From: a virus
Lineage: Duplodnaviria; Heunggongvirae; Uroviricota; Caudoviricetes
Length of the DNA stretch: 17,533 nucleotides
Virus record (IMG/VR): IMGVR_UViG_2711768056_000003
Coordinates: 1 to 17,533 of that record
Direction: 5' to 3' (one strand)
Shown: one piece after another, positions 1-14,948 of the stretch
How positions within the stretch are numbered: position 1 is the first letter of the stretch
Layout of the letters: each line of letters starts with the position of its first letter
The notes under the pieces: generated by a model
What the model was told of the DNA's origin: nothing
The model's input: the letters and a program-made list of their open reading frames with translations, nothing else
Database searches by the model: none
Made by a program: the position numbers and the translations under genes

Positions 1-185
1 AATGCGAGGCTAAATCCTGGTATTTGTAATGAACTGGCTCTTATCTCAACGCAGCCCCTTACTGCGCGCCAGATGCTCAATATCAAGCATCAGCAATGAG
101 ATGTTTAATCTGGATTCACTCCAGAAGTGATCACCACCCTGTCTACAGAGCCAGATGTGAAGGATGATGAGTAAAATTATCGCTA

Positions 186-623: not shown

Positions 624-1096
624 ACCTCAATCTCTCTGACCGTTCCGCCTGCTTCTTTGAATTTTGCAATCAGGTTGTCAGCCTTATGCTCGAACTGACC
701 ATAACCAGCGCCCGGCAGTGAAGCCCAGATATTGCTGCAACGGTCGATTGCCTGACGGATATCACCGCGATCAATCATCGGCAAAGCGCCACGCTCCTTA
801 ATCTGCTGCAATGCAACAGCATCCTGGCTTTTAGGAGAGAAGTCTTTCAGGCCAAGCTGCTTACGGTAGGCGTCCCACCAACGGGAAAGAAGCTGGTAAC
901 GTCCGGCAGCTGTTGATTTGAGTTTGGGGTTTAGCGTGACAAGTTTGCGAGGGTGATCTGAGTAATCAGTGAATAGCTCTCCGCCAACAATGACGTCATA
1001 ACCATGATTTCTGGTTTTCTGACGTCCGTTATCAGTTCCCTCTGACCACGCCAGCATATCGAGGAACGCCTTACGTTGATTATTGATTTCCACCAT
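620..1096 (-). CDS. R: Endolysin R (lambda-type lytic transglycosylase)
   Basis: 158 aa, [51 protein letters not shown]..., near-identical to lambda R as I recall it; overlaps the S stop and the Rz start. Confidence 0.95.
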
Positions 1097-1403
1097 CTTC
1101 TACTCCGGCTTTTTTAGCAGCGAAGCGTTTGATAAGCGAACCAATCGAGTCAGTACCGATGTAGCCAATGAACACGCTCGTTATATAAGCGAGATTGCTA
1201 CTTAGTCCGGCGAAGTCGAGAAGGTCACGAATGAACCAGGCGATAATGGCGCACATCGTTGCGTCGATTACTGTTTTTGTAAACGCACCGCCATTATATC
1301 TGCCGCGAAGGTACGCCATTGCAAACGCAAGGATTGCCCCGATGCCTTGTTCCTTTGCCGCGAGAATGGCGGCTAACAGGTCATGTTTTTCTGGCATCTT
1401 CAT
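1080..1403 (-). CDS. S: Holin S with dual start (Met1-Lys2-Met3: antiholin S107 / holin S105)
   Basis: 107 aa, [39 protein letters not shown]..., near-identical to lambda S; MKM dual-start motif present; three hydrophobic TM segments. Confidence 0.95.
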
Positions 1404-1998
1404 GTCTTACCCACAATAAGGGGATTTGCTCTATTTAATTAGGAATAAGGTCGATTACTGATAGAACAAATCCAGGCTACTGTGTTTAGTAATCAGATTT
1501 GTTCGTGACCGATATGCACGGGCAAAACGGCATGAGGTTGTTAGCGCAACCTCCTGCCACCGCTTTCACGAAGGTCATGTGTAGAAAGACGCAGCATAAC
1601 TATCACTGATGAATTCAGGATAGCCAGTGGCTACGGCTCAGGTTGGGTTGTGGCGGTCGGTGCTGAACTCCGACTTAATGACGATAGGCGTGTACCGACG
1701 CCTCGTTTTACTTCCTCCGCTTTCACGGCTTCACCCTAGACCAGCTTTACGAAATCCTCGTAAACCTAACCGCGGCAGATATGACCGGCACGGTGTGCCA
1801 TATCACGGACCGGCGGGTGTCTCGTTCACCTGATTAACGCATCAGCCTGCGTATTCACCACAACGATAAGAGCACTGCGCGGCACCTTTCACCAATTCCG
1901 CGAGGTCTGCGGGTTCAATGCTCTTACCTGTTGTGCAAACAAAAAAGCCACCGTTGCAACTTAAGAGTCACTAACGGCAGCTTACCCTCTAATTATGG
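1404..1998 (-). promoter_or_regulatory. Q-S intergenic region expected to carry late promoter pR', the Q-utilisation site and the late leader/terminator; exact elements not resolved
   Basis: Non-coding 595 bp between Q stop and S start, matching the lambda pR'-qut-tR' position; GC-rich and structured; the only long ORF (1627..1833) is Arg/Pro-rich junk. Confidence 0.45.
1941..1979 (-). terminator. Candidate intrinsic terminator just after Q stop
   Basis: Minus-strand RNA GCUGCCGUU-(17 nt loop)-AACGGUGGC followed by UUUUUU; 9-bp stem including two G-U pairs. The large loop makes it atypical. Confidence 0.35.
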
Positions 1999-2517
1999 CT
2001 AAATGGCTAATTGCATGTCAAGGCTTTTAACAGCAACATGCTTAACTTTCTCAACACGTTTACGCATTTTGAAAGCATTTTGCATTGGTTGGTACAAAAC
2101 AAATAATGACGCTTTCAGGATATCGTCAATTTCGTTTCTACAGGTTGCCAGTGAAGGTTTTCTCCATCCCTCGCCACCGCGTCCACACATCTTGCGTGGC
2201 TTTGCAGTCGCGTGATAGTAGGATGCAATTGCTCTCTTAGATGAACCATGAGCGTAGTAGCTGAGGAGGATGCCAAAGGCTTTCTTGTCAATGTACATGA
2301 CGGAATCGACGACCTGAGAAATCAACATTCCATCATCATCATTACACATTGGCCTTGTCATAATTCTTCCCGGCTCTACGCTCTCCATGAACTTCGCTAT
2401 TACGCTGCTCATGCGCTTTTCCAGACGACCTGAATAAACCCATGCGCCCCACAGTTCAAGCCAGCCATTCAGCCACTCGTGCTGCTCTTTGGTGAGGTTT
2501 AGTTCTCTTATGCTCAT
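1999..2517 (-). CDS. Q: Late-gene antiterminator Q (non-lambda Q family, phage 82 / QuuD-like)
   Basis: 172 aa immediately upstream of the lysis cassette; conserved LELWGAW and RPMCNDDDGM motifs plus YY pair that I recall from QuuD-type Q proteins. Confidence 0.8.
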   Translation of the reverse strand: MSIRELNLTKEQHEWLNGWLELWGAWVYSGRLEKRMSSVIAKFMESVEPGRIMTRPMCNDDDGMLISQVVDSVMYIDKKAFGILLSYYAHGSSKRAIASYYHATAKPRKMCGRGGEGWRKPSLATCRNEIDDILKASLFVLYQPMQNAFKMRKRVEKVKHVAVKSLDMQLAI

Positions 2518-2702
2518 CGTCTTCCCCTCTTGCCTTGTTTGACCATCAGGACGCCGTTAACTATTACGTGACGCTCGCCTTTGCTGTCTCGGTTGTACTT
2601 GAGCACTGTTCCTCTTGCGCAGGAAAGCATCCTCGCCACTTCGGTCTGATTGCCTCGTGTCTGGATAAGAAGCTCTGGTATCGTTTGAATTGTGGCGTTC
2701 AT
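2514..2702 (-). CDS. ninH: NinH (small HTH DNA-binding protein)
   Basis: 62 aa; ...TIPELLIQTRGNQTEVARMLSCARGTVLKY... parallels lambda NinH (GNQTEVARRL.CSRGTV.KY); ATGA start/stop overlaps with Q and rusA. Confidence 0.8.
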   Translation of the reverse strand: MNATIQTIPELLIQTRGNQTEVARMLSCARGTVLKYNRDSKGERHVIVNGVLMVKQGKRGRR

Positions 2703-3061
2703 GCGTTCTCCAGTTCGGTGATTTTTATTCCAAGCCGTCCGCCTGGTACTTTCACACCACGAATTACGCGAATGTCATCGAATTGCTCGTCGTCTTCCGC
2801 AAATCCGGCGTGGATAAGGGAGTCGAGTAAACCTTTCAGGATGTTATCGAGGTCGCGGCGGCGGGAGTCTGGAACGTCTGCGATGACTTTGATGCGGAGT
2901 CGTGATTTGGTGAAAATGTCTAACTTGAGTTGGCGGATGATTTGCTGAACGTCTTTTCGGTATTTCTGGCCTTTATCGCTGATGTAGTATTGGCTTCCCC
3001 GTCTTCGCCAGTAGGTGTTCACCGACGGCGGGTAAGGAAGCACAAACTGATATTCGTTCAT
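2699..3061 (-). CDS. rusA: RusA-family Holliday junction resolvase
   Basis: 120 aa; PPSVNTYW, DVPDSRRRDLDNILKGLLDSL and GGRLGIKITEL motifs match RusA of DLP12/lambdoid phages. Confidence 0.9.
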   Translation of the reverse strand: MNEYQFVLPYPPSVNTYWRRRGSQYYISDKGQKYRKDVQQIIRQLKLDIFTKSRLRIKVIADVPDSRRRDLDNILKGLLDSLIHAGFAEDDEQFDDIRVIRGVKVPGGRLGIKITELENA

Positions 3062-3348
3062 GGCTTAATCTTCCCCTCCTTCAGCAGGATCGCCTGCGTC
3101 CTGATCACGCCTTCGAGGTGATAAAGTCTGGCGTCTTTGTTGTCGAGATTATGGGTGCGTCGGTCGATTTCATCGTGACACGCGCTACAAGCCCATGCGC
3201 CAATCAGGTCGTCAGGTTTCATTCCCGTTCCGCAAATTCCAGCCATCCGGTAATGTGCCAGAACTGTAGTTTCAGGATTACCATTGCATACGCCGTAAAT
3301 ACGTACCTGGCATTCTCTGCCGCGTGCTTCTTTGCGTAGATTAGCCAT
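3058..3348 (-). CDS. DUF1364 / YbcO-like nin-region protein (Cys-rich, putative nuclease)
   Basis: 96 aa with conserved cysteines (CQVRIYGVCNGNPETTVLAH...CSACHDEID); typical position between roi and rusA in E. coli prophages. Confidence 0.65.
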   Translation of the reverse strand: MANLRKEARGRECQVRIYGVCNGNPETTVLAHYRMAGICGTGMKPDDLIGAWACSACHDEIDRRTHNLDNKDARLYHLEGVIRTQAILLKEGKIKP

Positions 3349-4070
3349 TAAGCAGCCTCCCCTGTTACTTTCAGCATTCCGTTATCGCGCAGCTTTCTGG
3401 TCAGCCACTGTTGACCACGCCCGGTGATTTTTGTGGTGAACGATATCTGTATTCCGTGATTTGTGTTGACCGCTGTTTCTTTCACTGTGAAATAGCCGCG
3501 ATCCATATATTCCTGCATTGGCACATTGCGCCGGGAACCTGAAGCAATAAGGATTTTGTGATCGCGCATCCACGCAAACAGTTTGTTTGGACCAATTCCA
3601 ACAACCTTTGCAAAGTTTCCAATCAAAATTCCGCTGGCCTCGCCAACGCGATCGGCAAACTCAACTTTAGGTGCGGCAATTGCGAGCTGGTTTTCCAGTT
3701 GCATTTTCTGCTCAGCAAGATCAGCAGCAAGGCGCAACGCTTCTGGTAGCGTTTTGGGGATATTAACCGCAGCTTCTTCAAGCTCTCGCCAACGGTCAAC
3801 AAGACGAGCGGTGAATTCCGGCGACAACTGAGCGACGACAATAATGCTGTCTCGCTTACCTTGTTCGCCCTCAAAAACGTAAGCCTCTACGCCACGAAGT
3901 AATCCTAAGTTATTGATTTTTTCGAAAACCACCATTGGGGGATTTCGGATCACACCTCGAGCCGCCAGTCGTTCAATAGATTGTTTCACCTTGTCATGAC
4001 GACTTCCCACCAACTCAGCGATTTCAATGCTTGTCATTTTGATGGCATTGCCATTTATTAACTCATTCAT
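3348..4070 (-). CDS. roi: Roi-like phage antirepressor / DNA-binding protein (Rha-like N-terminal domain + Ant/KilAC-like C-terminal domain)
   Basis: 240 aa; N-terminal HTH (MTSIEIAELVGSRHDKVKQSIERL) and C-terminal antirepressor-like domain; nin-region position as for HK022 roi. Confidence 0.75.
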   Translation of the reverse strand: MNELINGNAIKMTSIEIAELVGSRHDKVKQSIERLAARGVIRNPPMVVFEKINNLGLLRGVEAYVFEGEQGKRDSIIVVAQLSPEFTARLVDRWRELEEAAVNIPKTLPEALRLAADLAEQKMQLENQLAIAAPKVEFADRVGEASGILIGNFAKVVGIGPNKLFAWMRDHKILIASGSRRNVPMQEYMDRGYFTVKETAVNTNHGIQISFTTKITGRGQQWLTRKLRDNGMLKVTGEAA

Positions 4071-4239
4071 CGTCTTCTTCCTCGTACATTGAGCTATTCG
4101 GATCGCTCATCAGTTCTGCGCAGCAATCTGAGCACACGTGAACTTCCAGCACATGCAGCTTCTGACCGCAGTTAGCGCACGTTAAAGCCCGCTCGACGCT
4201 TTCTTTCTGGTATTGAATGGATTGGGATGGGCTAAGCAT
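4063..4239 (-). CDS. ninF: NinF (small Cys-rich protein)
   Basis: 58-aa ORF absent from the ORF track (below size cutoff), translated by hand: [58 protein letters not shown], very close to lambda NinF as I recall it; TAATG overlap with the upstream gene. Confidence 0.8.
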   Translation of the reverse strand: MLSPSQSIQYQKESVERALTCANCGQKLHVLEVHVCSDCCAELMSDPNSSMYEEEDDE

Positions 4240-4604
4240 TATTGGATTCTCTGCATCATGAGAAAGACAATCATGGCGGCGCGGAGGGGATTTTCATGTA
4301 TAGCTCGTTTAGATTTACAGTAGGCCACACCGCGTGCACCCCACTCGTCTTCATCGAGATTGATAATGCTAATCCTGTATTTTTCAATAATCGGCCATGC
4401 GTCTGCTGGGTTTGCGCATGGGTTAAAGGATCCGCGCTCAACTTCTACTTCAACTGCGTCTCCGTTTACAATGTCTCCCTCAAATGAGACAAACACCATA
4501 TCGCCATTCTCACCTTCTTTGTAATCCGGTGATCCGTTATGAATGGCTTCGAATACCGCCACGTTAATTTCAAAATCACTTAACTGTGAATAATCCATTG
4601 TCAT
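4239..4604 (-). CDS. Hypothetical acidic nin-region protein (start at MTMDYSQL...)
   Basis: ORF between ninE and ninF; ATGA overlap with the ninE stop; strongly acidic; no family recognised with confidence. Confidence 0.55.
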
Positions 4605-4777
4605 TTCCTCGCACGATGTCTTAGCCACCGGATATCCCACAGGTGAGCCGTGTAGTTGAAGGTTTTTACGTCAGATTCTTTTGGGATTGGCTTGCGTTTA
4701 TTTCTGGAGCGTTTCGTTGGAAGGTATTTGCAGTTTTCGCAGATGATGTCGGTGATACTTCGTCGCTGTCGCCTCAT
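4601..4777 (-). CDS. ninE: NinE
   Basis: Internal Met start gives [58 protein letters not shown], near-identical to lambda NinE; ATGA overlap with the upstream methylase gene. Confidence 0.85.
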
Positions 4778-5301
4778 GCCGCCCTCCTGACGCCCTGCCC
4801 GATCGCCATCAATGCCGCTTTGGATACGGTAGTAAACATCCGTCGAGGACTGATGAACGGTCGCCAAATCAGCAGCATGGAGCCTTTGCTGTTTCCCTTC
4901 TTCTCTAGCCCCGTCGATGGTTCGATAAAATTAATCCGTCCATCAGTGATAATACGAACTTCGTCAACACTCTCCAGAGCCTTGCTGAACCATCCGACTG
5001 ACATATCCTCTGGCACAAGCATAACTACCGTCTGTCGCTGTTGTATGCACTGCTCAGCGGCTTTTTCCACCCACGGCCTGATATTGCTGTACGGTGGGTT
5101 ATTCCAGATTGCACCGTGGCTTACCCACTCAGAATTGAGCGCGTCGTCGGCCTCAGTTAGCCAGTGAGCGCACAGAGCATTTTTGTCGCTCGCTGCCGAA
5201 TCCAGCCAGAATCCAAACTCAATATCCAGTGCATCAAAAAGCCAAAGCGGCGTTTGCCAGCAGTCCTTGTCGTGTGCTGGCGTATTTGATTTGATAGTCA
5301 T
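4774..5301 (-). CDS. Phage orphan N6-adenine DNA methyltransferase (Dam-like)
   Basis: Catalytic NPPY motif (WNNPPYSN); start at MTIKSNT... overlaps the ninB stop (ATGA); no adjacent restriction endonuclease gene. Confidence 0.8.
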
Positions 5302-5738
5302 GCAGCCCGATCTCCCCATCTCGCTTTCCACTCCAGAGCCAGTCTCGCTTCGTCTGACCACTTAACGCCACGCTCTGTACCGAATGCCTGTATAAGCTCT
5401 AATAGCTCCGCAAATTCGCCTACACGCATCCTGCTGGTTGACTGGCCTATTACCACAAAGCCATTCCCGGCAAGGTTAGGAACAACGTCCTGCTGCTTTA
5501 ATGCTGCGGTAAACACACACTTCCAGCTTTCTGCATCCAGCCAGCGACCATGCCATTCAACCTGACGAGAGACGTCACCAAGGCAAGCCCAAAGCTTTCG
5601 GTTTTGGTCTAAGCTGCGGTTGCGTTCCTGAATGGTTACTACGATTGGTTTGGTTGGGTCTGGAAGGATTTGCTGTACTGCGTGAATAGCGTTTTGCTGA
5701 TGTGCTGGAGATCGAATTTCAAAGGTTAGTTTTTTCAT
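5298..5738 (-). CDS. ninB: NinB (Orf-family recombination mediator)
   Basis: MKKLTFEIRSPAHQQNAIHAVQQILPDPTKPIVVTIQERNRSLDQNRKLWACLGDV... matches lambda NinB essentially throughout. Confidence 0.9.
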   Translation of the reverse strand: MKKLTFEIRSPAHQQNAIHAVQQILPDPTKPIVVTIQERNRSLDQNRKLWACLGDVSRQVEWHGRWLDAESWKCVFTAALKQQDVVPNLAGNGFVVIGQSTSRMRVGEFAELLELIQAFGTERGVKWSDEARLALEWKARWGDRAA

Positions 5739-5814
5739 GACTTCCCTCTCCCCCAAATAAAAAGGCCTGCGATTACCAGCAGGCCTGTTATTAGCTCAGT
5801 GATGTAGATGGTCA

Positions 5815-7251
5815 TCAGAATCCTCCTTTCTTCTTGGACTGCGGTTCCTCGCGTTCACGTCGGCGCATTTCAGCAGACTGTTGGTCTGTGTCATAAATAG
5901 CGCCATTTGCCTGAATGCAATACACCGTGCCGGTATTGCCATGACGATTGAGACGAAGGATTAGTTCGGTTTCACCAGGTGGAACACTGTCATCAAAAGC
6001 GCCTTCACGATGGATCCCAACCCAATAATCGCAATCCTGTTCAATCTGCCCTGTATCTCGTGAGTCACTTGGTAATGGGCGTTTATTGGTTCGGCTTTCC
6101 AGTGCGCGGTTAAGCTGCGTCAGAAGCACAACAACGCAATCAAGCTCTTTGGCAAGGTTCTTCAGTCCTTTGGTGATCATGCCGTAAGCAAGGTCGTTGC
6201 GATCGGCCTTCTCAGCGGTCATTAGTGTCAGGTAATCGACCAGAATCATGCCAACACATCCTTTTTCTCGCTTGATTCGACGGCTTTCGCTAACGATTTG
6301 AGCCAGAGATAATCCCGGCGTGTCGTCGATGTAAAGCAGGTCGATTTCACTCAAACGATTAGCTGTTTCGATCGCCCTGTTGAAGTCACCATCGTAATCA
6401 CCCTGATAGCCGTCATCAGCGTCATTTGTCGCCGGAAGGTAAAAAATATTCGGGTTAACACCAGACTTCTGCCCTACCAGTTTTTCCAGTATCTGATCAC
6501 CTGGCATTTCAAGGCTGAACATCAGAGCGGGCTTTTTCTCATGCACTGCGCAGTTGATTGCCATCTGGCTGTATAGCGTCGTTTTCCCCATCTTAGGGCG
6601 AGCGCCAATGACAAACAGAGAGCCTTTCACCAGACCTTTCGGTGACAGCATCCTGTCCAGCGATGGGATCCCTGTGCTCATTCCTCGTTGTTCGCCTGAC
6701 GGGTCAAATCGCTTCTCAAGGTCGCTAACCCAGTCTTCCATGACCTCACCAAATGAGCGAAGGCCGCGACGCGATCCGGTTTTTGCATGGTCTGTCAGTT
6801 GCGTGAAAATCGCCTGAATAGCTTCGTACTTCTGCGTTGCAGTCATTCCGTTGCGGGAATAGAGCAATTCCGTCGCTTCAGTCATGCGGTTGATGGCGTA
6901 GCGTTCCATTGCGGTTTCACGAACCTGCATTGCATAGGCAACGATGTTTGCTGCGCTTGGCGTATTCTTTGCGATCTCAGCGATATAAGCAAAACCGCCA
7001 ACAGACGCCGTTAACGATTTACGCTCCAGTTCATCGAAAAGCGTCAGGCCATCTACTGGCTTTTGCTCCCGGTGCATTCTGGTTATTTCTTCGAAAAGGA
7101 TTTTGTGTGGTCGGCTGTAAAATGAGTCAGGCTTCAGCATCGCCAGAACTTTCTGGACGCGCTCACTGCTGTCATCATCCAGAAGCAATCCACCAATCAC
7201 CGCCTGCTCTGCCTCGATGCTATGGGGCGGCGCATAAAAATTATCGGTCAT
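5815..7251 (-). CDS. DnaB-family replicative DNA helicase (P22 gp12-like)
   Basis: Walker A GARPKMGKTT; DnaB N-terminal motif SIEAEQAVIGGLLLD; ATG start at MTDNFY chosen rather than the GTG at 7266. Confidence 0.9.
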   Translation of the reverse strand: MTDNFYAPPHSIEAEQAVIGGLLLDDDSSERVQKVLAMLKPDSFYSRPHKILFEEITRMHREQKPVDGLTLFDELERKSLTASVGGFAYIAEIAKNTPSAANIVAYAMQVRETAMERYAINRMTEATELLYSRNGMTATQKYEAIQAIFTQLTDHAKTGSRRGLRSFGEVMEDWVSDLEKRFDPSGEQRGMSTGIPSLDRMLSPKGLVKGSLFVIGARPKMGKTTLYSQMAINCAVHEKKPALMFSLEMPGDQILEKLVGQKSGVNPNIFYLPATNDADDGYQGDYDGDFNRAIETANRLSEIDLLYIDDTPGLSLAQIVSESRRIKREKGCVGMILVDYLTLMTAEKADRNDLAYGMITKGLKNLAKELDCVVVLLTQLNRALESRTNKRPLPSDSRDTGQIEQDCDYWVGIHREGAFDDSVPPGETELILRLNRHGNTGTVYCIQANGAIYDTDQQSAEMRRREREEPQSKKKGGF

Positions 7252-8140
7252 CGTGTTCACCCTCACGAACTTTCAGGTAGGTATTATCGTTAAGCAGGAA
7301 ATCAAATCCCTTTTTGTGCCAGACGGTTCCGCGTTGATGGTTTGGGCGCTCTTCGAACATCCATCGGCAATTTTCGCCAACGTAGCTCAAATAATTTCTC
7401 CAGTCCTGCATCGTGAACCCATGCCCGTCAAGCTGGCGGGTTATCACTCCGGCTTTGCGCCAGAACGTTCGGATCTGGTTTTTACGCTTGTCATTCAGTG
7501 CGCGGATTCTTGGAGCTTCGGGAAGGATTTCGTGGTAAGCATCGACAACATCCTGACAGCTGACGGAAGGTTTTTTCTTGTCAGACTTTTTGTCTGCTGT
7601 GGCACTCTCTAATACGTCAGTATTAGAGATAATATTATTATATTCTTTATCTGTGGTAATTTGCTGGTAATCTGCTGGTACAGCATTGCTTACAGGCATT
7701 GGTATTGCTGGCTTTGAGGTGGTAATTTGCTGGTAATCTGCTGGTACAAAATTTGACTGATAATCGTCATATTTCTCTACCGAGAAAACTGAGAATTTAC
7801 CGTGTGAAACCCAGTCAATCATGCCGAGTTTTTTGAACTTTCTAAGCAGGTACTGAACGCGATCTGGTTTGAGTCCTGTTTCAAACGCCAGAGAGTTTCT
7901 ACCGCCAAGTAGCTTCCCTCTGCCTACCAGAATTTCTCCTGCGTCAGTCATTACATACTCAGGCGTATGCTTTGCTTTGAGGATTAAGTGAACCCACAGA
8001 TGCGCTGCTTCTGCATCCTTGTAAAACGGCACATCCATAATTTTACGGTGCAGCAAGGCATACCCCTTACCGCTGCTTTGATGCGGTTGTTGTAGCCTTC
8101 TGGCCTCTCTGGCTTCGGCTAGATTAGATATGTTACTCAT
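7241..8140 (-). CDS. Replication initiator (O-like: N-terminal DNA-binding domain, repeat-containing linker, DnaT-like C-terminal domain)
   Basis: Immediately upstream of the helicase and downstream of cII; linker contains duplicated peptide [10 protein letters not shown] encoded by the iteron repeats; C-terminal region resembles the helicase-loading domain of phage initiators. Confidence 0.8.
7615..7760. repeat. Candidate phage origin of replication: iterons plus adjacent AT-rich segment inside the initiator gene
   Basis: Two perfect 30-bp direct repeats GTGGTAATTTGCTGGTAATCTGCTGGTACA at 7653..7682 and 7729..7758, each built of TGCTGGTA sub-repeats; further TTGCTGG copies between; AT-rich stretch 7620..7650 on the C-terminal side, as at lambda ori. 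Confidence 0.6.
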
Positions 8141-8279
8141 GACCTTTCTCCTTCTGCATCAGCTTCACTTTTTCCAACTCAGCCCGGAATCGACCAGGCT
8201 GCTTGAAGCTGGACAGGAAGCGATCACGTAGTATGTGTTTGTGAATTTTGTCCTGGTAAGGACTGAGTTGTTTTGTCAT
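8133..8279 (-). CDS. Small basic hypothetical protein (48 aa) between cII and the initiator gene
   Basis: Hand-translated [48 protein letters not shown]; SD AGGAG 7 nt upstream of ATG; stop overlaps the initiator start codon. Confidence 0.45.
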
Positions 8280-8311
8280 AATTACTCCTGTGGATTGATC
8301 CAGTAATTCCC

Positions 8312-8608
8312 TCAGAATTGCATATCAATTTGCTTAAAATCCTCGGTGGCGGCCGGGGATTTTTTCTTTGTGATTTCATCAAGCGCATACTTAAAAGCCC
8401 TGCTAATCGGACTGATGTCTGATGCCATTCCGAAAGCACACAAGACCGAAGCAATAAATCTCCAGTCCGTTCTGCTTATCTTCGATTCATGACAGCCAAT
8501 CATCTTTGCCAGACCGCGCTGGGTAAGCGTTGACAGGTTGATGAGTAAATCAGTTTCAGCGCGATCAACGTCACGCTGTGATAGTTTGCTGTAACTTGTT
8601 CTTTCCAT
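8312..8608 (-). CDS. cII: CII-like transcriptional activator
   Basis: 98 aa; C-terminus [18 protein letters not shown] parallels lambda CII KKRPAATERSEQIQMEF; HTH region present; located between cro and the replication genes. Confidence 0.8.
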
Positions 8609-8693
8609 TTCTTAAGATTTCCAATAGTGAATAGTTAGTTGAAAGGTATGCGTGGAAACGCATATGGCCTTGGTTGGTCAGATATTCTGGGAT

Positions 8694-8739
8694 TCGCTTT
8701 TCAGCGACGTAGGACGAATGTCCGTTGTTACAAAGAGCG
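8694..8739 (-). promoter_or_regulatory. nutR candidate (boxA, small hairpin, boxB hairpin)
   Basis: Minus-strand RNA 8 nt after the cro stop: CGCTCTTTGTAACAAC (boxA-like), GGAC-auuc-GUCC, uacg, then UCGCU-GAAA-AGCGA (5-bp stem, GAAA tetraloop); same architecture as the nutL candidate. Confidence 0.6.
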
Positions 8740-8746
8740 GGGTTAC

Positions 8747-8974
8747 TTATGCTGCCAGAAGGTTCTTTTTGCTTATTTCAAGCAATTCGCTTGCTTGATA
8801 TTTGCCACCAGAAATCTCTTCGATTTTTGAGGCGTATTTCGTTTTCCCAAAAAACTCAGTCTTAGGGAGGAAGCCGTTTTTGAGCCACTTATAGACAGCC
8901 CTTTCGCTAACTCCACAAGCCTTCGCAACTTCAGGGATGCCGACACCTTTAATCGGCTCATCAAGATTTTGCAT
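8747..8974 (-). CDS. cro: Cro-like repressor (HTH)
   Basis: 75 aa with HTH (IPEVAKACGVSERAVYKWLKNG); divergent from cI across the operator region; SD AAGGG upstream. Confidence 0.75.
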   Translation of the reverse strand: MQNLDEPIKGVGIPEVAKACGVSERAVYKWLKNGFLPKTEFFGKTKYASKIEEISGGKYQASELLEISKKNLLAA

Positions 8975-9053
8975 AGGAATATCCCTTTTTCGTACTTTTA
9001 GTACGCATTATGGTTGAACTGAAAGTTTTTGCAAGTGCTTTAGTATCGTACTC
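8975..9053. promoter_or_regulatory. OR switch region: PR for cro on the minus strand, PRM for leaderless cI on the plus strand, candidate operators
   Basis: PR: -35 TTGCAA (9029..9034), 16-bp spacer, -10 CATAAT (minus strand of 9007..9012). Candidate operators: CGTACTTTTAGTACG (8991..9005) and TTTAGTATCGTACTC (9039..9053). cI ATG has no SD. Confidence 0.6.
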
Positions 9054-9761
9054 ATGGTTCAGAATGAAAAAGTGCGCAAAGAATTCGCCCAGCGGCTAGC
9101 GCAAGCCTGTAAAGAAGCTGGTCTTGATGAACATGGTAGGGGTATGGCCATAGCCCGTGCCCTTTCTCTTTCGTCCAAAGGCGTTAGCAAATGGTTTAAT
9201 GCTGAGTCTTTACCGCGTCAGGAAAAAATGAATGCGCTTGCGAAATTTCTAAACGTTGATGTTGTTTGGCTTCAGCACGGCACTTCGTTAAATGGAGCGA
9301 ATGATGAAGATACTCTTTCATTTGTTGGCAAATTAAAAAAAGGGTTAGTGCGCGTGGTTGGTGAGGCAATTCTTGGTGTTGATGGTGCCATCGAGATGAC
9401 CGAAGAGCGCGATGGGTGGCTCAAGATTTATAGTGATGATCCAGATGCCTTTGGTCTTCGTGTGAAAGGAGACAGCATGTGGCCCAGAATAAAATCAGGA
9501 GAATATGTACTCATTGAGCCTAACACCAAAGTATTCCCGGGTGATGAGGTGTTTGTCAGAACCATCGAAGGACACAACATGATCAAGATTCTTGGCTATG
9601 ACAGAGATGGAGAATACCAGTTTACAAGCATCAACCAAGACCACAGACCAATAACGTTGCCTTATCATCAAGTAGCAAAGGTGGAGTATGTGGCTGGTAT
9701 TCTGAAGCAGTCCCGCCATCTGGATGACATCGAGGCAAGGGAGTGGCTGAAAAGTTCGTGA
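9054..9761 (+). CDS. cI: CI prophage repressor (N-terminal HTH + C-terminal LexA/S24-like autocleavage domain)
   Basis: 235 aa; N-terminal HTH; C-terminal domain with GDSMWP serine motif and downstream lysine typical of S24 self-cleaving repressors; divergent from cro. Confidence 0.9.
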   Translation: MVQNEKVRKEFAQRLAQACKEAGLDEHGRGMAIARALSLSSKGVSKWFNAESLPRQEKMNALAKFLNVDVVWLQHGTSLNGANDEDTLSFVGKLKKGLVRVVGEAILGVDGAIEMTEERDGWLKIYSDDPDAFGLRVKGDSMWPRIKSGEYVLIEPNTKVFPGDEVFVRTIEGHNMIKILGYDRDGEYQFTSINQDHRPITLPYHQVAKVEYVAGILKQSRHLDDIEAREWLKSS

Positions 9762-9878
9762 CTTCATCGTCACATAGCTGGTAACCAATGGCCTGAAGAG
9801 ACGTTTGGGTGATATATGTGAAATGCATATATTGATATAAATGCAGCAATATCAAATAGTTAAAAGGTTATATTTTTA

Positions 9879-10259
9879 ATGAATGATCTTGATAAGAAAA
9901 AGTACGACCAAGTTATTGATTCTGTGAACTTCGCCCTTAGATCGTTGTCAGAGTTATTCGAAGCCCATGGAATGCATGGGATGTATGATCTAACGAATCC
10001 AAGCCTTGATGAGCTAAAATTAGTGTTTACAAGGATGAAAAACGGTGTTGACTCTATTGCTCAAAGCTTTGAGCACATGGTAGAGACAGCAAAGGATATG
10101 GATGCCGCAAGTGCAAGCATAAATGTTATGAACATCAAACAAGGATTGATGTATGCTGAATCACTATTGCTTGCTGTAGAGAAATTAGACTATGATAAAT
10201 GTGTGGAAGCAAATACGCAGATAAAAACCCACGATCTTCCACCAACCCAATGGCCTTAA
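9879..10259 (+). CDS. Hypothetical 126-aa protein in the rex position (candidate lysogen-expressed cargo gene)
   Basis: ORF directly downstream of cI on the same strand, in a visibly AT-rich segment; predicted soluble, helical; no family recognised. Confidence 0.6.
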   Translation: MNDLDKKKYDQVIDSVNFALRSLSELFEAHGMHGMYDLTNPSLDELKLVFTRMKNGVDSIAQSFEHMVETAKDMDAASASINVMNIKQGLMYAESLLLAVEKLDYDKCVEANTQIKTHDLPPTQWP

Positions 10260-10328
10260 TAGTAAATCAAGATTTCATATAGTCTATTTGAACTAGGCTA
10301 GTACCATAAAATAAACCGAGGAAACGCA

Positions 10329-10430
10329 ATGAAAACCATGTCCACTCTGCACAAAGATGCAATGACCCTGAGATCTCTCATTAACGAGATTCTGGCTCGC
10401 TCGTCAGCACACACCAAAAAAGCCGCATAA
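10329..10430 (+). CDS. Small hypothetical ORF (33 aa) downstream of the 126-aa gene
   Basis: Hand-translated MKTMSTLHKDAMTLRSLINEILARSSAHTKKAA; SD GAGGA 7 nt upstream; followed within 11 nt by an intrinsic terminator. Confidence 0.4.
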   Translation: MKTMSTLHKDAMTLRSLINEILARSSAHTKKAA

Positions 10431-10440
10431 TGCCTACATA

Positions 10441-10469
10441 ACCCGGCCTCAGCGCCGGGTTTTCTTTGC
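10441..10469 (+). terminator. Rho-independent terminator closing the cI-side (immunity) transcription unit
   Basis: ACCCGGC-cucagc-GCCGGGU (7-bp GC-rich stem) followed by TTTTCTTT. Confidence 0.7.
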
Positions 10470-10636
10470 CTCACGATCGCCCTCCCATATTTAATAGCCG
10501 CAAATGTGGTAAACCGCGAACCAACTCACCAGCAATAACCACTCCAACTACAGACCAATCTGCAGCATTTACAAAAATAAATTTCCTTATATATCAAAAT
10601 CATATATCGCAGCATTAATAAATCACAAAATTTCGT

Positions 10637-10676
10637 ACCAATAGTTCTTGATAATGTCGAACTATTGGTTCATTAT
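10637..10676 (+). promoter_or_regulatory. Candidate pL promoter overlapped by a perfect inverted repeat (candidate operator)
   Basis: -35 TTGATA (10648..10653), 17-bp spacer, -10 CATTAT (10671..10676); 11-bp perfect inverted repeat ACCAATAGTTC (10637..10647) / GAACTATTGGT (10659..10669) spans the -35 and spacer; TTTCGTAC upstream shares an 8-mer with OR. Confidence 0.45.
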
Positions 10677-10722
10677 TGTCACATCAGCAGGACGCTGGAA
10701 GCCAAACGGAACAGACTGGCAG

Positions 10723-10768
10723 GCTCTTTAAACAACGTCGAACTCTCGACTACGTGGCTGAAAAGCCA
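10723..10768 (+). promoter_or_regulatory. nutL candidate (boxA, small hairpin, boxB hairpin)
   Basis: GCTCTTTAAACAACG (boxA-like, rrn-boxA-like), GTCGA-acuc-UCGAC, uacg, then UGGCU-GAAA-AGCCA (5-bp stem, GAAA tetraloop); between pL and N. Confidence 0.6.
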
Positions 10769-10866
10769 GATCACCCAACCACATAAGCTGTGGGATGCAA
10801 TGCCGAAGCAACCGTCTCAGGAGGGGCTTCGAGATTGCATCGCCAAAGTTTATTCGGGAGGAATCT

Positions 10867-11139
10867 ATGTCCAGAAAAACAGAATTTAAAGGCACCGCAG
10901 CTTCTCGCCGTAGAGCTCGTCGTGCAAATCTGCAAAGTCAGGAGGCGATCAGCTCCGACAAGCTACACAGGCCAACCCCTTCACGAGTGGTCTTGCAATG
11001 CAAGCGCAAACCAGCAATGAGAGCAGAAGTAATAACACTGACAACGTTGACCAGAAAATATGAAGGCTCAACTTGTCTTCCAAACGTAGCTCTTTACGCG
11101 GCAGGCTACCGTAAATCCAAACAACTGACAGCGAGGTAA
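10867..11139 (+). CDS. N: N-like transcription antiterminator (arginine-rich motif)
   Basis: Start at MSRKTEFKGTAASRRRARRANLQ with ARM resembling lambda/P22 N; SD GGGAGG upstream; first gene after pL/nutL. Confidence 0.75.
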   Translation: MSRKTEFKGTAASRRRARRANLQSQEAISSDKLHRPTPSRVVLQCKRKPAMRAEVITLTTLTRKYEGSTCLPNVALYAAGYRKSKQLTAR

Positions 11140-11141
11140 TT

Positions 11142-11594
11142 ATGGATTTAAGTAAATTAGAAAGCTCTTTGGAAGCATCAGTAAAAAAATTTATATCAGT
11201 AATTGATGAAAAAACTGAAGATATTAAGAAAGCAAATATTATCGAACTTGTAGAAACAAGAACCAGCACATTTGAACATCTTCCTGATGATGTCCGGTCA
11301 GCGGCAATTCACGTATATGTAACGGCACTAAGCAATATTGAACCCCCAATTGATGAAGAATCAAGAGATATTCAGAGAAAACGACTTGAAATGTTAGCCA
11401 GCAACATTATCGCTGGTTTCACACGGCTCTTAGCAAAAAAGCCTGCCAGTGAAGCTATTCGCCAGCAGGCTCAGGTAATGATTAATCAGGCAGAAACTAT
11501 TTCACGTGAGCGAAAAGCATTTGATAAATCGGTTTCTGAACTTCCAACACCTCAACCGCAGCCGCTGAACCTTCCTTCTCAACAAACTGAATAA
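11142..11594 (+). CDS. Hypothetical 150-aa protein, translationally coupled to N (ral/sieB position)
   Basis: Starts 2 nt after the N stop with SD GAGG; AT-rich 5' half; C-terminal 98 bp overlap a convergent minus-strand ORF. Confidence 0.5.
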   Translation: MDLSKLESSLEASVKKFISVIDEKTEDIKKANIIELVETRTSTFEHLPDDVRSAAIHVYVTALSNIEPPIDEESRDIQRKRLEMLASNIIAGFTRLLAKKPASEAIRQQAQVMINQAETISRERKAFDKSVSELPTPQPQPLNLPSQQTE

Positions 11595-11751
11595 CTTCAT
11601 CAAGATTCTTTTTTGCATTTGTTGATTGCTCAGGCGGCATAGCAGAAACAATCGAAATGATTGCTTGCTGGAGCGCGAGGTTTTCAGTGCTCAGTTTTGA
11701 AACTCTGTCGTTTAAATCCTCAATGATTTTAACAAGAGATACATCTGACAT
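11497..11751 (-). CDS. Hypothetical 84-aa protein encoded antisense to the pL operon
   Basis: Strong SD AAGGAG 6 nt upstream of ATG; helical, coiled-coil-like sequence; opposite orientation to all neighbouring early-left genes. Confidence 0.5.
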   Translation of the reverse strand: MSDVSLVKIIEDLNDRVSKLSTENLALQQAIISIVSAMPPEQSTNAKKNLDEVIQFVEKEGSAAAVEVLEVQKPIYQMLFAHVK

Positions 11752-11764
11752 GTGAACTCCTTAT

Positions 11765-11811
11765 TTTGACTGTGGAAACAACAGTCTACCCATTTCCTTT
11801 GACTGTGGAAA
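11765..11811. repeat. Two perfect 14-bp direct repeats TTTGACTGTGGAAA, the first overlapping a 6-bp-stem hairpin
   Basis: Copies at 11765..11778 and 11798..11811; GACTGT (11768..11773) pairs with ACAGTC (11781..11786); immediately upstream of the 84-aa minus-strand gene start. Confidence 0.6.
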
Positions 11812-11961
11812 GTGAAGGAACCACCGAGCCTGATGTGGTTAAAAGACAGGCACACTAATAAACACTGCACTGTGTATTCATTCCAACGAGTGAATACACG
11901 GAGCAATGTCGCTCGTAACTAAACAGGAGCCGACTTGTTCTGATTATTGGAAATCTTCTTT

Positions 11962-11988
11962 GCCCTCCTATGTGAGGGCAATTTTTTG
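11962..11988 (+). terminator. Rho-independent terminator (tL1-like) in the pL operon
   Basis: GCCCTC-cuaugu-GAGGGC followed by AATTTTTTG; directly precedes the SD of the next gene. Confidence 0.6.
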
Positions 11989-11999
11989 ACGGAGGATAT

Positions 12000-12311
12000 A
12001 TGAAATTACGTGTCTGGCATATCCCGCAAGTACCTATGAAGCCGTTCATTGTAGAAGTGGCAAGTGTTGAAGAGGGTGTTCGCCTGATGGACGCACTGGC
12101 TGATTATGACGCCTTTCAGTATGACAACAACATCAAGCCTGATTACTGCAATGCTAACGGCCTTGAGATGTGGGATGAGAGCCTTACCGATGAAGATTTA
12201 TCAGAGATGGGGCTTACTGATCGCTGGGTGGATTGGTACAGCGAATGCCAATGTTACGACGACCCACGTAAATATCTCGAAAGCCTGAAAGAAGAAACAT
12301 CAGCCGCCTAA
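12000..12311 (+). CDS. Hypothetical strongly acidic 103-aa protein
   Basis: SD GGAGG 5 nt upstream; large excess of Asp/Glu over Lys/Arg; early-left operon position. Confidence 0.6.
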   Translation: MKLRVWHIPQVPMKPFIVEVASVEEGVRLMDALADYDAFQYDNNIKPDYCNANGLEMWDESLTDEDLSEMGLTDRWVDWYSECQCYDDPRKYLESLKEETSAA

Positions 12312-12386
12312 GCGCGGCTTTACCGCATACCAATAACGCTTCACTCGAGGCGTTTTCGTTATGCAATCAAACAGAAGGAGCATCCT

Positions 12387-12557
12387 ATGCAACAGTTCGC
12401 TATTGCAGGGGCGGCATCGGTTCGCCCTTTCAACCCGATTTTATCGGTACAGCATTCACGAAAAAATATTTTAACCGGAGCAGACTTTAAACAACCAAGA
12501 ATGAAAAGTTTGCTCGAAAAGCTTTGGGATATTTTGAAACAACAAGGCCGTCCATGA
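12387..12557 (+). CDS. cIII: CIII-like protein (FtsH/HflB inhibitor protecting CII)
   Basis: Hand-translated 56 aa MQQFAIAGAASVRPF...LLEKLWDILKQQGRP; N-terminal MQ.AIAG and C-terminal L.DIL.Q.G.P parallel lambda CIII; SD AAGGAG. Confidence 0.65.
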   Translation: MQQFAIAGAASVRPFNPILSVQHSRKNILTGADFKQPRMKSLLEKLWDILKQQGRP

Positions 12558-12664
12558 GTTTTACAGATAACTGGTCAGACGAAGAATTCATTCGTCAGAT
12601 GAACAAAATGCTCAATCAGCACAAAGAACAGGAGAAAGATGATGATTCTGACTCTGAAAGATGA
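12554..12664 (+). CDS. Small acidic ORF (36 aa), translationally coupled to cIII (kil position)
   Basis: ATGA overlap with the cIII stop; MSFTDNWSDEEFIRQMNKMLNQHKEQEKDDDSDSER; overlaps the start of the next ORF in another frame. Confidence 0.3.
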   Translation: MSFTDNWSDEEFIRQMNKMLNQHKEQEKDDDSDSER

Positions 12665-12950
12665 GCGTGAAATATCGCAAATAATCGCAAGTTTTACTGA
12701 TGAAGATTACGAACGAATCAAAAGTGAAGTTGATCGCCTCTGCAAACGTTGCGACCCAATAAGCGAAATGCTTCGCTCATATAAACCAGATGAACACACT
12801 AAGGACGCTATCGACTGGCTGGAAGATTATGACTGTAACTATCAGGAAAAAGCCGCTGAATGGTTCTGGGATGCAATAACCGAAAGAGTTAAGGCTGAAT
12901 ATGCCTTCGCAATATTCAAACGCAGACATATTTATGGAGAAGCTGCATGA
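12639..12950 (+). CDS. Hypothetical 103-aa protein upstream of recT
   Basis: Long ORF with ATGA overlap to recT; acidic; no family recognised. Confidence 0.55.
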   Translation: MMILTLKDEREISQIIASFTDEDYERIKSEVDRLCKRCDPISEMLRSYKPDEHTKDAIDWLEDYDCNYQEKAAEWFWDAITERVKAEYAFAIFKRRHIYGEAA

Positions 12951-13858
12951 GCAATATCGTTGAATTCGTTAAACAGCAAGAGCAGTTATTCTGCGGAGCA
13001 TTGACTGAACAGACGGTGACATGGGCTAAGGAAAGCCAGTTTGCAATTCAGTATTTCCAGAAAAATGATTACCTGGCTAAAACGGCACTGGCAAATCCAA
13101 CCAGCGCACAGAACGCCATCATCAATGTTGCGGCGATCGGCATCACCTTAAACCCGGCCAGCAAACTGGCTTATCTGGTTCCTCGCGACGGCATGGTGTG
13201 CCTTGATATCAGTTATATGGGATTGCTCCATATTGCAATGGAGTCTGGTGTTATCTCATGGGGTCAGGCAAAACTTGTTCATGCTAACGATACCTATGAG
13301 TCAAACGGGCTTGATAAAGCACCAACCCATAAATACAACGCCTTCGGTGATCGTGGTGATATCGTTGGCGTTTACTGCACAGTTAAGACGCCAGCAGGTG
13401 ATTATCTAACGGAAGAGATGAGTCTGGCTGAAATTGAGGCTGTAAGGAAAACAAGCAAGGCGGCATTCAGCGATAAAGGACCATGGGTAAATCACTGGAA
13501 TGAGATGGCGCGAAAGACGGTCGTAAAGCGTGCAAGCAAGTATTGGCCTAAGGCATCACGTCTTGATAGTGCTATTCACGTACTAAACGAAGAAGAAGGT
13601 GTGTGGACTGAACCAGTTATGCCGCACAAATCAGAGGAAGATATCCGCGAAGATGAACGGAAACGCCAGCAGGAAATAACGGATAAAGCACAACTTCTTT
13701 GCGATGAAATGGCTCAGGCAGAAAACATGGATGATTTGAAGCGATATTTTGCAGAAGCATATCGCCTGACATCTGGAATGAAATTGCAGCAGAACGTACA
13801 AGCCATTTACATAGAATGCAAAGCGAAACTGGAGGTTGCCAGTGAGCAAACTGTATGA
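12947..13858 (+). CDS. recT: RecT-family single-strand annealing recombinase
   Basis: 303 aa; GPWVNHWNEMARKTVVKRASKYWP parallels Rac RecT GPWVTHWEEMAKKTAIRRLFKYLP. Confidence 0.9.
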   Translation: MSNIVEFVKQQEQLFCGALTEQTVTWAKESQFAIQYFQKNDYLAKTALANPTSAQNAIINVAAIGITLNPASKLAYLVPRDGMVCLDISYMGLLHIAMESGVISWGQAKLVHANDTYESNGLDKAPTHKYNAFGDRGDIVGVYCTVKTPAGDYLTEEMSLAEIEAVRKTSKAAFSDKGPWVNHWNEMARKTVVKRASKYWPKASRLDSAIHVLNEEEGVWTEPVMPHKSEEDIREDERKRQQEITDKAQLLCDEMAQAENMDDLKRYFAEAYRLTSGMKLQQNVQAIYIECKAKLEVASEQTV

Positions 13859-14324
13859 AATAGCCAATGAATACGCAAAGCTGATGGATTCAGATTTAGA
13901 GCCAGAGATGATTGCTGACACAATAGAAGGCATGGAAGGAGAATTTACCGATAAAATAGAGCAACTTCTTGCCATTATTAAAAATGAATCTGGTTATGCT
14001 GAACGCCTCAAGGAAGAGGCAAAGTCACTGAATGAGCGAGCCGCAGTAATTCAAAATAAGATTGAGAGCATCAAATCATATATAGCGTCATCGCTTGAAA
14101 TGGTTGGCAAGAAAAAGATTCGAGCAGGTATTCACCAGGTAACAATCCGCAAACCGTCAGAAACTGTAGAAATCATCGACTCAAGCGCCCTTCCTCCTGA
14201 ATACGTTGAGTTTGAAACGACAATTAAAGCCGACAAACTGGCAATCAAACACCAACTAAAAGCAGGAATAAATATCCCCGGCGCTCAACTCAAAGTTGGG
14301 AAACCTTCACTTCTTATCAAATAA
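13842..14324 (+). CDS. Gp157/Gam-like protein (possible host-nuclease inhibitor); GTG start
   Basis: About 160 aa with N-terminal coiled coil; SD GGAGG 6 nt before GTG at 13842; overlaps the recT 3' end; family assignment from memory only. Confidence 0.5.
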   Translation: MSKLYEIANEYAKLMDSDLEPEMIADTIEGMEGEFTDKIEQLLAIIKNESGYAERLKEEAKSLNERAAVIQNKIESIKSYIASSLEMVGKKKIRAGIHQVTIRKPSETVEIIDSSALPPEYVEFETTIKADKLAIKHQLKAGINIPGAQLKVGKPSLLIK

Positions 14325-14335
14325 CGGTATCGACT

Positions 14336-14650
14336 ATGAAAAAGACTCCATGGGAGAAATGGGAAGTCGATTTCTTGCGCGAGGTAGCGGCGACAATGCC
14401 AGTTGAAGTTATCGCTGAAAAACTGGAAAGGACTGAAAAAGCAGTAATGGCGAAAGCAACAAGGATTGGCGCTGACATTGTTAGCCGACTTCGTGGAAGA
14501 CGATGGACAAGAGCCGAAGTATCACTTTTCGGTAAGTTCTCCGCAGAAGAAATAGCAATTGCAACCTGCCGCTCAATTTATTCAGTAAGAGCTATGCGAT
14601 ACAAGCTAAAAAAACTCGATGAAGAAAGAGCAGGCATACGAATAAATTAA
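14336..14650 (+). CDS. Hypothetical 104-aa protein with an internal tandem duplication of an HTH-like segment
   Basis: Residues WEKWEVDFLREVAATMPVEVIAEKLERTEKAVMAKATRIG and RRWTRAEVSLFGKFSAEEIAIATCRSIYSVRAMRYKLKKL share a repeated pattern. Confidence 0.6.
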   Translation: MKKTPWEKWEVDFLREVAATMPVEVIAEKLERTEKAVMAKATRIGADIVSRLRGRRWTRAEVSLFGKFSAEEIAIATCRSIYSVRAMRYKLKKLDEERAGIRIN

Positions 14651-14666
14651 CATGGAGTAATTAACA

Positions 14667-14948
14667 ATGAAGCTAAACATCGACCTTGGAAAATACGTTA
14701 TTACCGGAACCAAACACGACCTGATTCTTAGCGAAAGAGGAATTATCAAAGAAGGTGAGAATGCAGGGAAAGAAACACTAAGCCGTATCGGTTATTACAG
14801 CAAGTTTGAGCATCTGGTTAAAGAGTTATGCAACCGTGAAATCCTGTTATCTCAGGCGCAGACGCTACAGGATATTCAGCAGCATATCGAGACTTTAGGT
14901 GTGTCACTTAGCATGGCCGTTGACCAGTTCGTGGAGAGTAAATCATGA
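14667..14948 (+). CDS. Hypothetical 93-aa protein
   Basis: ORF with SD GGAG upstream in a tightly packed operon; no family recognised. Confidence 0.55.

Follow-up and report, generated by a model that had tools for sequence, protein, structure and literature searches.

Several lambdoid phages are already recorded as carrying a replication origin, built from short repeats, inside the gene for their own initiator protein. The GenBank record of prophage VT2-Sakai (AP000422.1) bears two misc_binding features, 'ori iteron 1' and 'ori iteron 2', described as bound by the O protein; the record of phage Sf6 places a rep_origin over the equivalent repeats, with the comment 'repeat region reminiscent of the phage lambda origin; similar to phage HK620'; and in gene 18 of phage L six 11-bp repeats, TGTCCAACGGA, have been named as the likely origin (PMC8022706). 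According to Hilliker (1981), as cited in the same paper (PMC8022706), the replication genes of L and P22 are exchangeable only as a whole region. In the full-text literature searched, which did not include the HK022 (1994), HK620 (2001) and Sf6 (2004) papers, no experiment on an origin of this HK022/L type was found, whether by footprinting or binding assay, by cloning of the origin or by mapping of the replication start.

The origin of phage lambda, re-read here for comparison, comprises four dyad-symmetric iterons of about 19 bp with start-to-start distances of 20, 24 and 23 bp, followed by an AT-rich tract and then by a 12-nt inverted repeat with a 4-nt loop. These inverted-repeat iterons bind dimers of O (PMC5043065). 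P22 gene 18 follows the same 20/24/23 design with a sequence of its own, TTTACCnnATCGGTAAA, then an AT-rich tract and the inverted repeat CCCCCT..AGGGGG, and eight further lambda-type genes contain dyad iterons together with irregular, G/C-rich partial palindromes. These eight genes were obtained by tblastn against phage records, the relatives of lambda O in viral contigs being 80 identical lambda-like copies.

The window considered here, by which is meant the whole 17,533-nucleotide stretch of DNA analysed, has the lambdoid gene order cI (9054-9761, plus strand), cro, cII, orf48, O and DnaB-like helicase, and is mosaic as a whole, the best phage record covering just 52% of it. The HK022-type initiator gene 'O' occupies 7241-8140 on the minus strand and encodes a protein of 299 aa; it was identified from the list of open reading frames and its translation, from DNA identity, and from a match to PHROG 345 ('replication initiation O-like', E 1e-87). 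Its DNA is 98.8-99% identical to that of the O genes of HK022, mEp235, VT2-Sakai and a Stx1-converting phage, the value for HK022 being 98.8% over the whole gene. Overlapping its end lies the gene for a DnaB-like replicative helicase of the HK022 P or P22 gp12 type (5815-7266, minus strand), with Pfam matches to DnaB_C (E 3e-60) and to the DnaB N-terminal domain (E 3.5e-31), whose counterpart is annotated as P or DnaB-like helicase in HK022 and VT2-Sakai.

We put at roughly 85% the probability that the linker-coding part of this initiator gene contains the theta-replication origin of a lambdoid prophage of the HK022, HK620 and VT2-Sakai type. An earlier note on this DNA had likewise read the locus as a replication origin, and that reading is now supported by the identity of the gene and its synteny, by a layout common to some 50 relatives, by selection at silent sites, and by an order of parts like that of the lambda origin; all the support for origin function is comparative or drawn from annotation. 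As a prediction the origin is already known from public records, so that the finding as such repeats existing annotation and adds little as a discovery. The window is another member of the group of predicted origins formed by HK022, HK620, VT2-Sakai (Sp5, of the 'Eru3' replication type), Sf6 and phage L, and differs from them in nothing essential. The covariation of the palindrome, the evidence from silent sites and the reach into distant phages, all set out below, were not found in the annotations and literature examined.

The initiator has two recognisable domains on either side of the linker. The N-terminal domain (aa 1-128; 7757-8140, minus strand) is predicted to be a winged-helix DNA-binding domain, and is presumed to be the reader of the iterons. 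An AlphaFold2 model of residues 1-128 (mean pLDDT 82) has a helix-turn-helix followed by a beta wing, which makes the modelled fold a winged helix-turn-helix; Foldseek matches to this model were generic winged helices with weak E-values of 2e-3 or worse. Neither a curated family nor a solved relative of the initiator was found at significance by Pfam, NCBIfam or PDB-sequence profile searches, Pfam returning solely a sub-threshold match to DUF7376, and the same three resources gave no significant match of the N-domain to a curated model for DnaD or for replisome organizers; the N-domain is matched by PHROG families named 'DnaD-like helicase loader'. Homology to HK022 O and phage L gp18 extends over this N-domain, which is 100% identical to its counterparts in HK022, HK620 and VT2-Sakai and 57-58% identical to those in gp18 of L and ST64T, the value for L being 57%. 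The C-terminal domain (aa ~173-299; 7244-7624, minus strand) is matched by phrog_24933 over aa 173-299, and is presumed to be the partner of the phage helicase. The C-terminal part shares 25% identity with that of P22 gp18 (E 1e-4).

Within the linker-coding part of the gene, the 30-bp sequence GTGGTAATTTGCTGGTAATCTGCTGGTACA was located twice on the plus strand by a repeat finder, at 7653-7682 and 7719-7748, with no mismatch between the copies. The earlier note had correctly described them as a perfect direct repeat pair within the initiator coding sequence (both are inside the reading frame 7241-8140, which runs on the minus strand), but had set them 76 bp apart; the true distance is 66 bp from start to start, with a gap of 36 bp and a total span of 96 bp. 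By our own arithmetic, about 1e-13 identical 30-mer pairs would be expected by chance in a gene of 900 bp. The two copies coincide exactly with the features annotated in AP000422.1, 'ori iteron 1' corresponding to 7719-7748 and 'ori iteron 2' to 7653-7682. Each copy is in turn made of sub-repeats, as had also been proposed, with a period that Tandem Repeats Finder (TRF) reports as 11 bp. The 15-mer GGTAATYTGCTGGTA has four exact occurrences, and if up to three mismatches are allowed it has five matches against 0.62 expected, a number reached in none of 200 shuffles.

Read in the direction of transcription, the array begins with iteron block 1 (7719-7751, minus strand), which consists on the coding strand of the three 11-bp units TTTTGTACCAG, CAGATTACCAG and CAAATTACCAC. 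Iteron block 2 (7653-7685, minus strand) consists of the units TGCTGTACCAG, CAGATTACCAG and CAAATTACCAC. Between them is a spacer of 33 bp, or three unit lengths (7686-7718, minus strand), which holds the two blocks 66 bp apart both in reading frame and in 11-bp phase; the first unit length of the spacer is a degenerate fourth unit, CTCAAAGCCAG, and its units 5 and 6 have low information compared with the blocks. The 11-bp units are direct repeats without internal dyad symmetry.

Relatives of the locus were collected in two ways, a tblastn search with the N-domain giving 133 phage records and a scan of one genome per species giving 52 prophage loci. Some 50 relatives have a common layout, in which two sets of three units are separated by a 33-bp spacer and followed by an AT-rich tract and then a palindrome, and the cassette always follows directly after the winged-helix N-domain. 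All the Enterobacterales members share this layout in an 11-nt register, with a perfect inverted repeat whose stem is 9-11 and whose loop is 2-4 nt. The window conforms in every part: six 11-bp repeats (two sets of three, 66 bp apart) come after the part coding for the N-domain, the AT-rich tract and a perfect short-loop palindrome lie downstream of them, and the whole cassette falls within the linker-coding part of 7241-8140. The use of the AT-rich tract and palindrome as a defining trait is our own proposal from this comparison, and is absent from the annotations. Direct repetition is strongest at a lag of 66 bp in 43 loci; in seven others the best lag is 55 bp (66 minus 11).

The sequences that fill this layout vary by lineage, both in the units and in the palindrome. 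The unit is TTACCAGCA in the present window and in HK022, TGTCCAACG in ST64T, L and Sf6, TGTCCAGCC in the Klebsiella phage Chronis group, and TGCCAACA in an Erwinia, Klebsiella and Yersinia group. Common to all is a CCA triplet, invariant in all six units at 49 of 49 loci, and the information in the spacer is low. The two blocks of one genome are 86% identical to each other, as against 67% for the same block compared between genomes, and in Enterobacter adelaidei both blocks are those of the window, whereas about 10 of the 36 positions of the spacer are different.

Such repeats could in principle be nothing but a duplicated peptide in a flexible protein linker, with no function in the DNA. A period of 66 bp amounts to 22 codons, and the peptide is truly duplicated: the ten residues that the earlier note had placed in the interdomain linker are indeed found there, at aa 132-141 and again at aa 154-163, after the modelled N-domain (aa 25-127) and ahead of the C-terminal region (aa 173-299), and linkers are known to tolerate duplications. 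The period of 11 bp within each block, however, cannot come from a repeated peptide: because 11 is not a multiple of 3, each unit of a block falls in a frame of its own and the CCA triplet occurs in all three codon phases. Where its bases fall on four-fold degenerate third positions, they are kept in 47-49 of 49 sequences (1.75-2.0 bits), whereas of five four-fold sites taken as controls in these genes, at N-domain residues that do not vary, four are near random, with 0.04-0.15 bits. CCA being frozen at silent sites, selection must be acting on the DNA, and the repeat is not merely a duplicated linker peptide. The peptide moreover varies freely among lineages while the layout of the DNA is fixed, and a role confined to the protein is accordingly extremely improbable.

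On the C-terminal side of the repeats the earlier note had marked an AT-rich stretch at 7620-7650, and the composition bears this out, with a GC fraction of 0.20 in the 40-nt interval 7620-7659. The tract proper is at 7630-7652 and reads AGATAAAGAATATAATAATATTA on the coding strand, with 2 G/C in its 23 nt. An AT-rich tract stands at the equivalent position in all the Enterobacterales relatives, and that of the window is presumed to be a DNA unwinding element.

Immediately beyond the tract is a perfect palindrome at 7606-7629, of the form 10+4+10 (TCTCTAATAC-tgac-GTATTAGAGA), with arms at 7606-7615 and 7620-7629 and a loop of 4 nt; the earlier note had missed it. The palindrome lies partly outside the interval 7615-7760 to which that note referred. 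As a hairpin of single-stranded DNA it has a dG of -7.5 kcal/mol, with a z-score of -5.0 against shuffled sequences. Among the relatives there are 31 distinct versions, with at least 12 unrelated arm sequences. At positions 3-11 from the centre, all 279 of the 279 pairs in these versions are Watson-Crick, with two to four types of pair at each position and neither a mismatch nor a single G-T, and pairing is lost beyond the stem. That the sequence is so free suggests that it is the structure which is kept, rather than a fixed recognition site for a protein, and the lack of G-T pairs points to a constraint at the level of DNA rather than RNA. Judged by these comparisons, selection acts on the palindrome and on the units as DNA.

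The region is transcribed from pR and the palindrome would fold as RNA too, so the conserved elements might be thought to act in the mRNA, for instance through a hairpin that governs how the O-P transcript is translated or decays. In an RNA stem under selection, though, it would be unusual that 31 distinct palindromes with many two-sided changes should contain no G-U among 279 cells. There is also no T run after the stem, no match to an Rfam family in the window, and no evident RNA-structure role for 11-bp direct repeats, and we regard an element working in the mRNA as very unlikely.

Perfection of the palindrome is not uniform in lambda, P22 and the other lambda-type genes compared, and is not a general trait of lambda-type origins: the arms in lambda are an imperfect 12-nt pair, P22 has only its CCCCCT..AGGGGG, and the others are irregular. 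As far as the sequences compared can tell, the strict palindrome is a trait of the HK022/L-type origin family.

The AT-rich tract is also the usual mosaic junction between a module comprising the N-domain and iterons and a module comprising the C-domain. Sf6 differs from the window in its N-domain and units but is identical to it from the AT-rich tract onward, C-domain included, and partial matches in E. coli genomes end near 7650. In Erwinia phage 59 a window-type N-domain with its 11-bp units is fused to the C-domain of lambda O (70% identity, E 6e-63), and this fused O is followed by a homologue of lambda P. Altogether, the N-domain and cassette are found joined to at least four classes of C-domain, that of lambda O among them. 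This is the classical lambdoid arrangement, in which an origin-specificity module (N-domain plus iterons) and a helicase- or loader-specificity module (C-domain) are joined at the origin.

Given these junctions, the AT-rich tract and palindrome could be mainly a conserved joint, or 'boundary sequence', for the exchange of lambdoid modules and not a working part of an origin, and it fits with this that the palindrome mostly moves with the class of C-domain, although there are exceptions and the association is inseparable from linkage. Recombination, however, needs identity, and not a perfect self-complementarity that is kept by compensatory changes in at least 12 sequence versions; the lambda and P22 origins, moreover, have an inverted repeat in the same relative position. 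Service as a joint is not mutually exclusive with service in an origin, and that the elements should be a joint and not an origin part is highly implausible.

Phages of a single host may carry different units, each with its own type of N-domain, as do HK022 (TTACCAGCA) and Sf6 (TGTCCAACG), the Sf6 type of N-domain being shared by E. coli phages, HK75 and mEp234 among them. The mutual information between N-domain residues and unit bases is highest for R100, K104, Y97 and P92, which are in the predicted recognition helix, and also for A67, V37 and K55. This association was dropped as a sign of direct readout, since it is confounded by phylogeny and the top residues lie outside the recognition helix as well as in it; plain physical linkage would also give the same pattern of co-inheritance.

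The units might be genuine binding sites in DNA and yet not belong to an origin, serving instead for autoregulation, titration or handcuffing of O, or being bound by a host protein, DnaA for example, while the true origin lay elsewhere. Plasmid iteron arrays do serve in copy control as well; lambda iterons carried on a plasmid inhibit phage replication (PMC3349717); and the last unit in some lineages, GTGTCCACA, is in our own comparison two mismatches away from a relaxed DnaA box. A site for a host factor would nevertheless be uniform among the phages of each host, and the units of E. coli phages differ from one another and track the phage N-domain; the proposal that the units are DnaA boxes was rejected on the ground that they differ among phages of one host. 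Neither further iteron sites nor a second array could be found convincingly in the 17.5-kb window, and the order of units, AT-rich tract and palindrome is the one seen at the lambda and P22 origins. Binding sites of a kind unconnected with an origin are therefore considered unlikely.

The earlier note had further stated that the locus mirrors the lambda origin, and this is true of part of the design. As in lambda and P22, the origin is placed inside the initiator gene, between the parts for the DNA-binding N-domain and the C-domain, and its elements come in the order iterons, AT-rich tract, short-loop inverted repeat. Lambda O and the initiator of the window are both 299 aa long, and in lambda too the specificity modules are swapped among phages, a lambda-type C-domain being able to join a window-type N-domain. 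The likeness does not extend to the type of iteron, since the four iterons of lambda and of P22, each about 19 bp long, are dyad-symmetric, a pattern not seen in the window, where there are two sets of three head-to-tail 11-bp units with a block spacing of 66 bp. Nor does it extend to the protein family: BLASTP finds no similarity between the N-domain and lambda O (E > 4) and Pfam Phage_rep_O does not match, so that the initiator does not fall in the lambda O family. Lambda also differs in the partner of the initiator, which is the lambda P loader of host DnaB, whereas the window, like P22, encodes a DnaB-like helicase of its own. The shared order of parts suggests that the origin works like that of lambda, and not that the initiator belongs with lambda O.

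In the orientation of its repeats the locus is closer to the origins of iteron plasmids (P1, F, R6K, pPS10 and RK2), which likewise have direct, phased repeats adjoining an AT-rich unwinding element. Plasmid iterons measure some 17-22 bp and as a rule are not inside the rep gene, and no sequence relationship was found between the origin in the window and those of iteron plasmids. Direct iterons in plasmids are bound by winged-helix initiators as monomers (PMC5043065). A further parallel, by description, is offered by the DnaD-like replisome organizers of Gram-positive phages and by phage SPP1: the oriL of SPP1 lies inside gene 38, the gene for the origin-binding protein itself, the replisome organizer gp38, for which both binding and in-vitro replication have been shown (PMC6316719), and has direct repeats with an AT-rich unwinding element. 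In SPP1, as in the window, helicase genes follow the initiator gene, but SPP1 has a separate loader, gp39, and the hosts of the two phages belong to different phyla.

The same association of N-domain and array can be followed into distant phages. An 11-bp array is found at the equivalent place in Lactobacillus phage phiAT3, whose N-domain shares 33% identity with that of the window. In phiAT3 and in one Vibrio, one Shewanella and one Pseudomonas phage, with N-domains about 30% identical, an 11-bp tandem array starts 5-30 bp after the N-domain and is followed by an A-rich 9-bp array, with an imperfect palindrome after the A-rich array in phiAT3. Prophages in assemblies of Spongiibacteraceae, Elusimicrobiales and Bacteroidia have five tandem 11-mers with a GAACAAC core.

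A plausible course of initiation may be proposed from this layout. After transcription from pR, O would use its winged-helix N-domain to bind the six 11-bp units, which lie head to tail, and, these being direct repeats, would probably do so as tandem protomers and not as the lambda-like dimers that occupy dyad sites. On our reading of the spacing, the constant 11-bp and 66-bp phasing would bring these protomers into one regular array. The array would then distort the DNA and open the adjoining AT-rich tract, aided by pR transcription and supercoiling as in lambda, and the C-domain would recruit the DnaB-like helicase that the phage itself encodes in the gene that follows. The least certain step concerns the palindrome, which probably forms a hairpin or cruciform in the DNA, or else marks a boundary, in aid of opening or of helicase loading; confidence in any specific role for it is much lower than in the origin itself. 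It is tempting to go further and to view the HK022/L-type origin as a distinct and widespread design, in which a monomer-type winged-helix initiator acts on head-to-tail 11-mers, in the manner of plasmids and unlike lambda O, and in which a palindrome selected for its structure extrudes beside the unwinding element and shares directly in opening or helicase loading. This last view is tentative, and we would give it somewhat lower than even odds.

The replication module to which this origin belongs is a common one, the origin region being matched in 374 of 5426 complete E. coli genomes. The Stx2 prophage VT2-Sakai, from E. coli O157:H7, has the same module, and replication of the phage has been reported to be necessary there for effective production of toxin (PMC7466680). 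The HK022/L-type origin was annotated more than 20 years ago, and biochemical work on the origins of Stx phages appears to concern the lambda-type origins of others among them. The comparison now provides precise elements within it: six CCA-centred 11-mers, a 33-bp spacer of which the length is kept, an AT-rich tract, and a palindrome of which the structure is kept. Beyond the Enterobacterales, the signature formed by the N-domain, the 11-bp array and the A-rich array, as met in phages of Lactobacillus, Vibrio, Shewanella, Pseudomonas and Bacteroidia, could be used to predict replication origins generally in such phages.

As a lambdoid prophage segment, the window (1-17533) is mosaic: the closest phage record covers 52% of it at 97.9% identity, while coverage by HK022 is 44%, and no Rfam family was found at or above threshold in positions 1-17533. 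The ORF that follows cI, at 9879-10259, encodes 126 amino acids and is longer than HK022 nun (110 amino acids), which is located downstream of cI in that phage.

Within the HK022-type O gene, the AT-rich tract, at about 7630-7652, forms a mosaic junction. Starting at this tract, the Sf6 sequence does not differ from that of the window, but its N-domain and iterons do, and in some E. coli prophages (hits H95-H98) the match to the window is limited to 7590-7650, comprising the palindrome and the C-domain side. In Erwinia phage vB_EhrS_59 (L006, 886-1836), an N-domain of the HK022 family and its 11-bp iterons are fused to a lambda-O C-domain, with 70% identity, and a homolog of lambda P is encoded next after this initiator. 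Such fusions are natural chimeras, and among the compared loci at least four classes of C-domain are joined to the one origin cassette.

Directly past the AT-rich tract lies a perfect palindrome (10+4+10, 7606-7629), a feature absent from the finding of the earlier note. A palindrome is present at the equivalent place in loci L004-L056, with at least 12 unrelated arm sequences among the relatives. Across 31 distinct versions, the nine central pairs are Watson-Crick in 279 of 279 cases, and G-T pairs are found in none of these 279.

In more distant relatives, an 11-bp tandem array begins immediately past the homologous N-domain and is followed by an A-rich 9-bp array (AAGAAGGAA-like). Arrays of this kind were located in L063 (1257-1344), L064 (1253-1367), L065 (1214-1313) and L066 (1226-1282), and also in L055, L057 and L058; their sources include phages of Lactobacillus, Vibrio, Shewanella and Pseudomonas, together with prophages of marine and Bacteroidia assemblies. 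Two Prevotella loci (L060 and L061) have a 12-bp unit, in about seven copies, in place of the 11-bp array. In the window itself, the unit core TTACCAGCA also occurs as a single exact copy on the plus strand just downstream of the helicase gene (5773-5781). Allowing at most one mismatch, it matches at 12 places in the window, where 4 would be expected, and 4 of the 12 fall inside the origin; chance probably accounts for the isolated copies.

In the N-domain coding region, the codon for the invariant Gly26 (about 8063-8065), a four-fold silent control site, is GGG in 48 of 49 relatives. Its conservation comes close to that of the iteron cores and sets it apart from the four remaining control sites; it might mark a further constraint on DNA or RNA near the 5' part of O. 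Database proteins matching the N-domain (P0001-P0036) are mostly labelled partial and are 71-221 amino acids long, the majority 130-221, so many of them end within or just past the repeat region; this may reflect breaks in assembly or gene calling at the repeats.

The iterons of P22 (L067, 1340-1426) and lambda (L062, 435-521) are unrelated in sequence, yet have the same start-to-start spacing of 20, 24 and 23 bp. The geometry of lambda-type arrays is kept independently of sequence, and the HK022-type family likewise keeps its 11/66-bp geometry independently of sequence.
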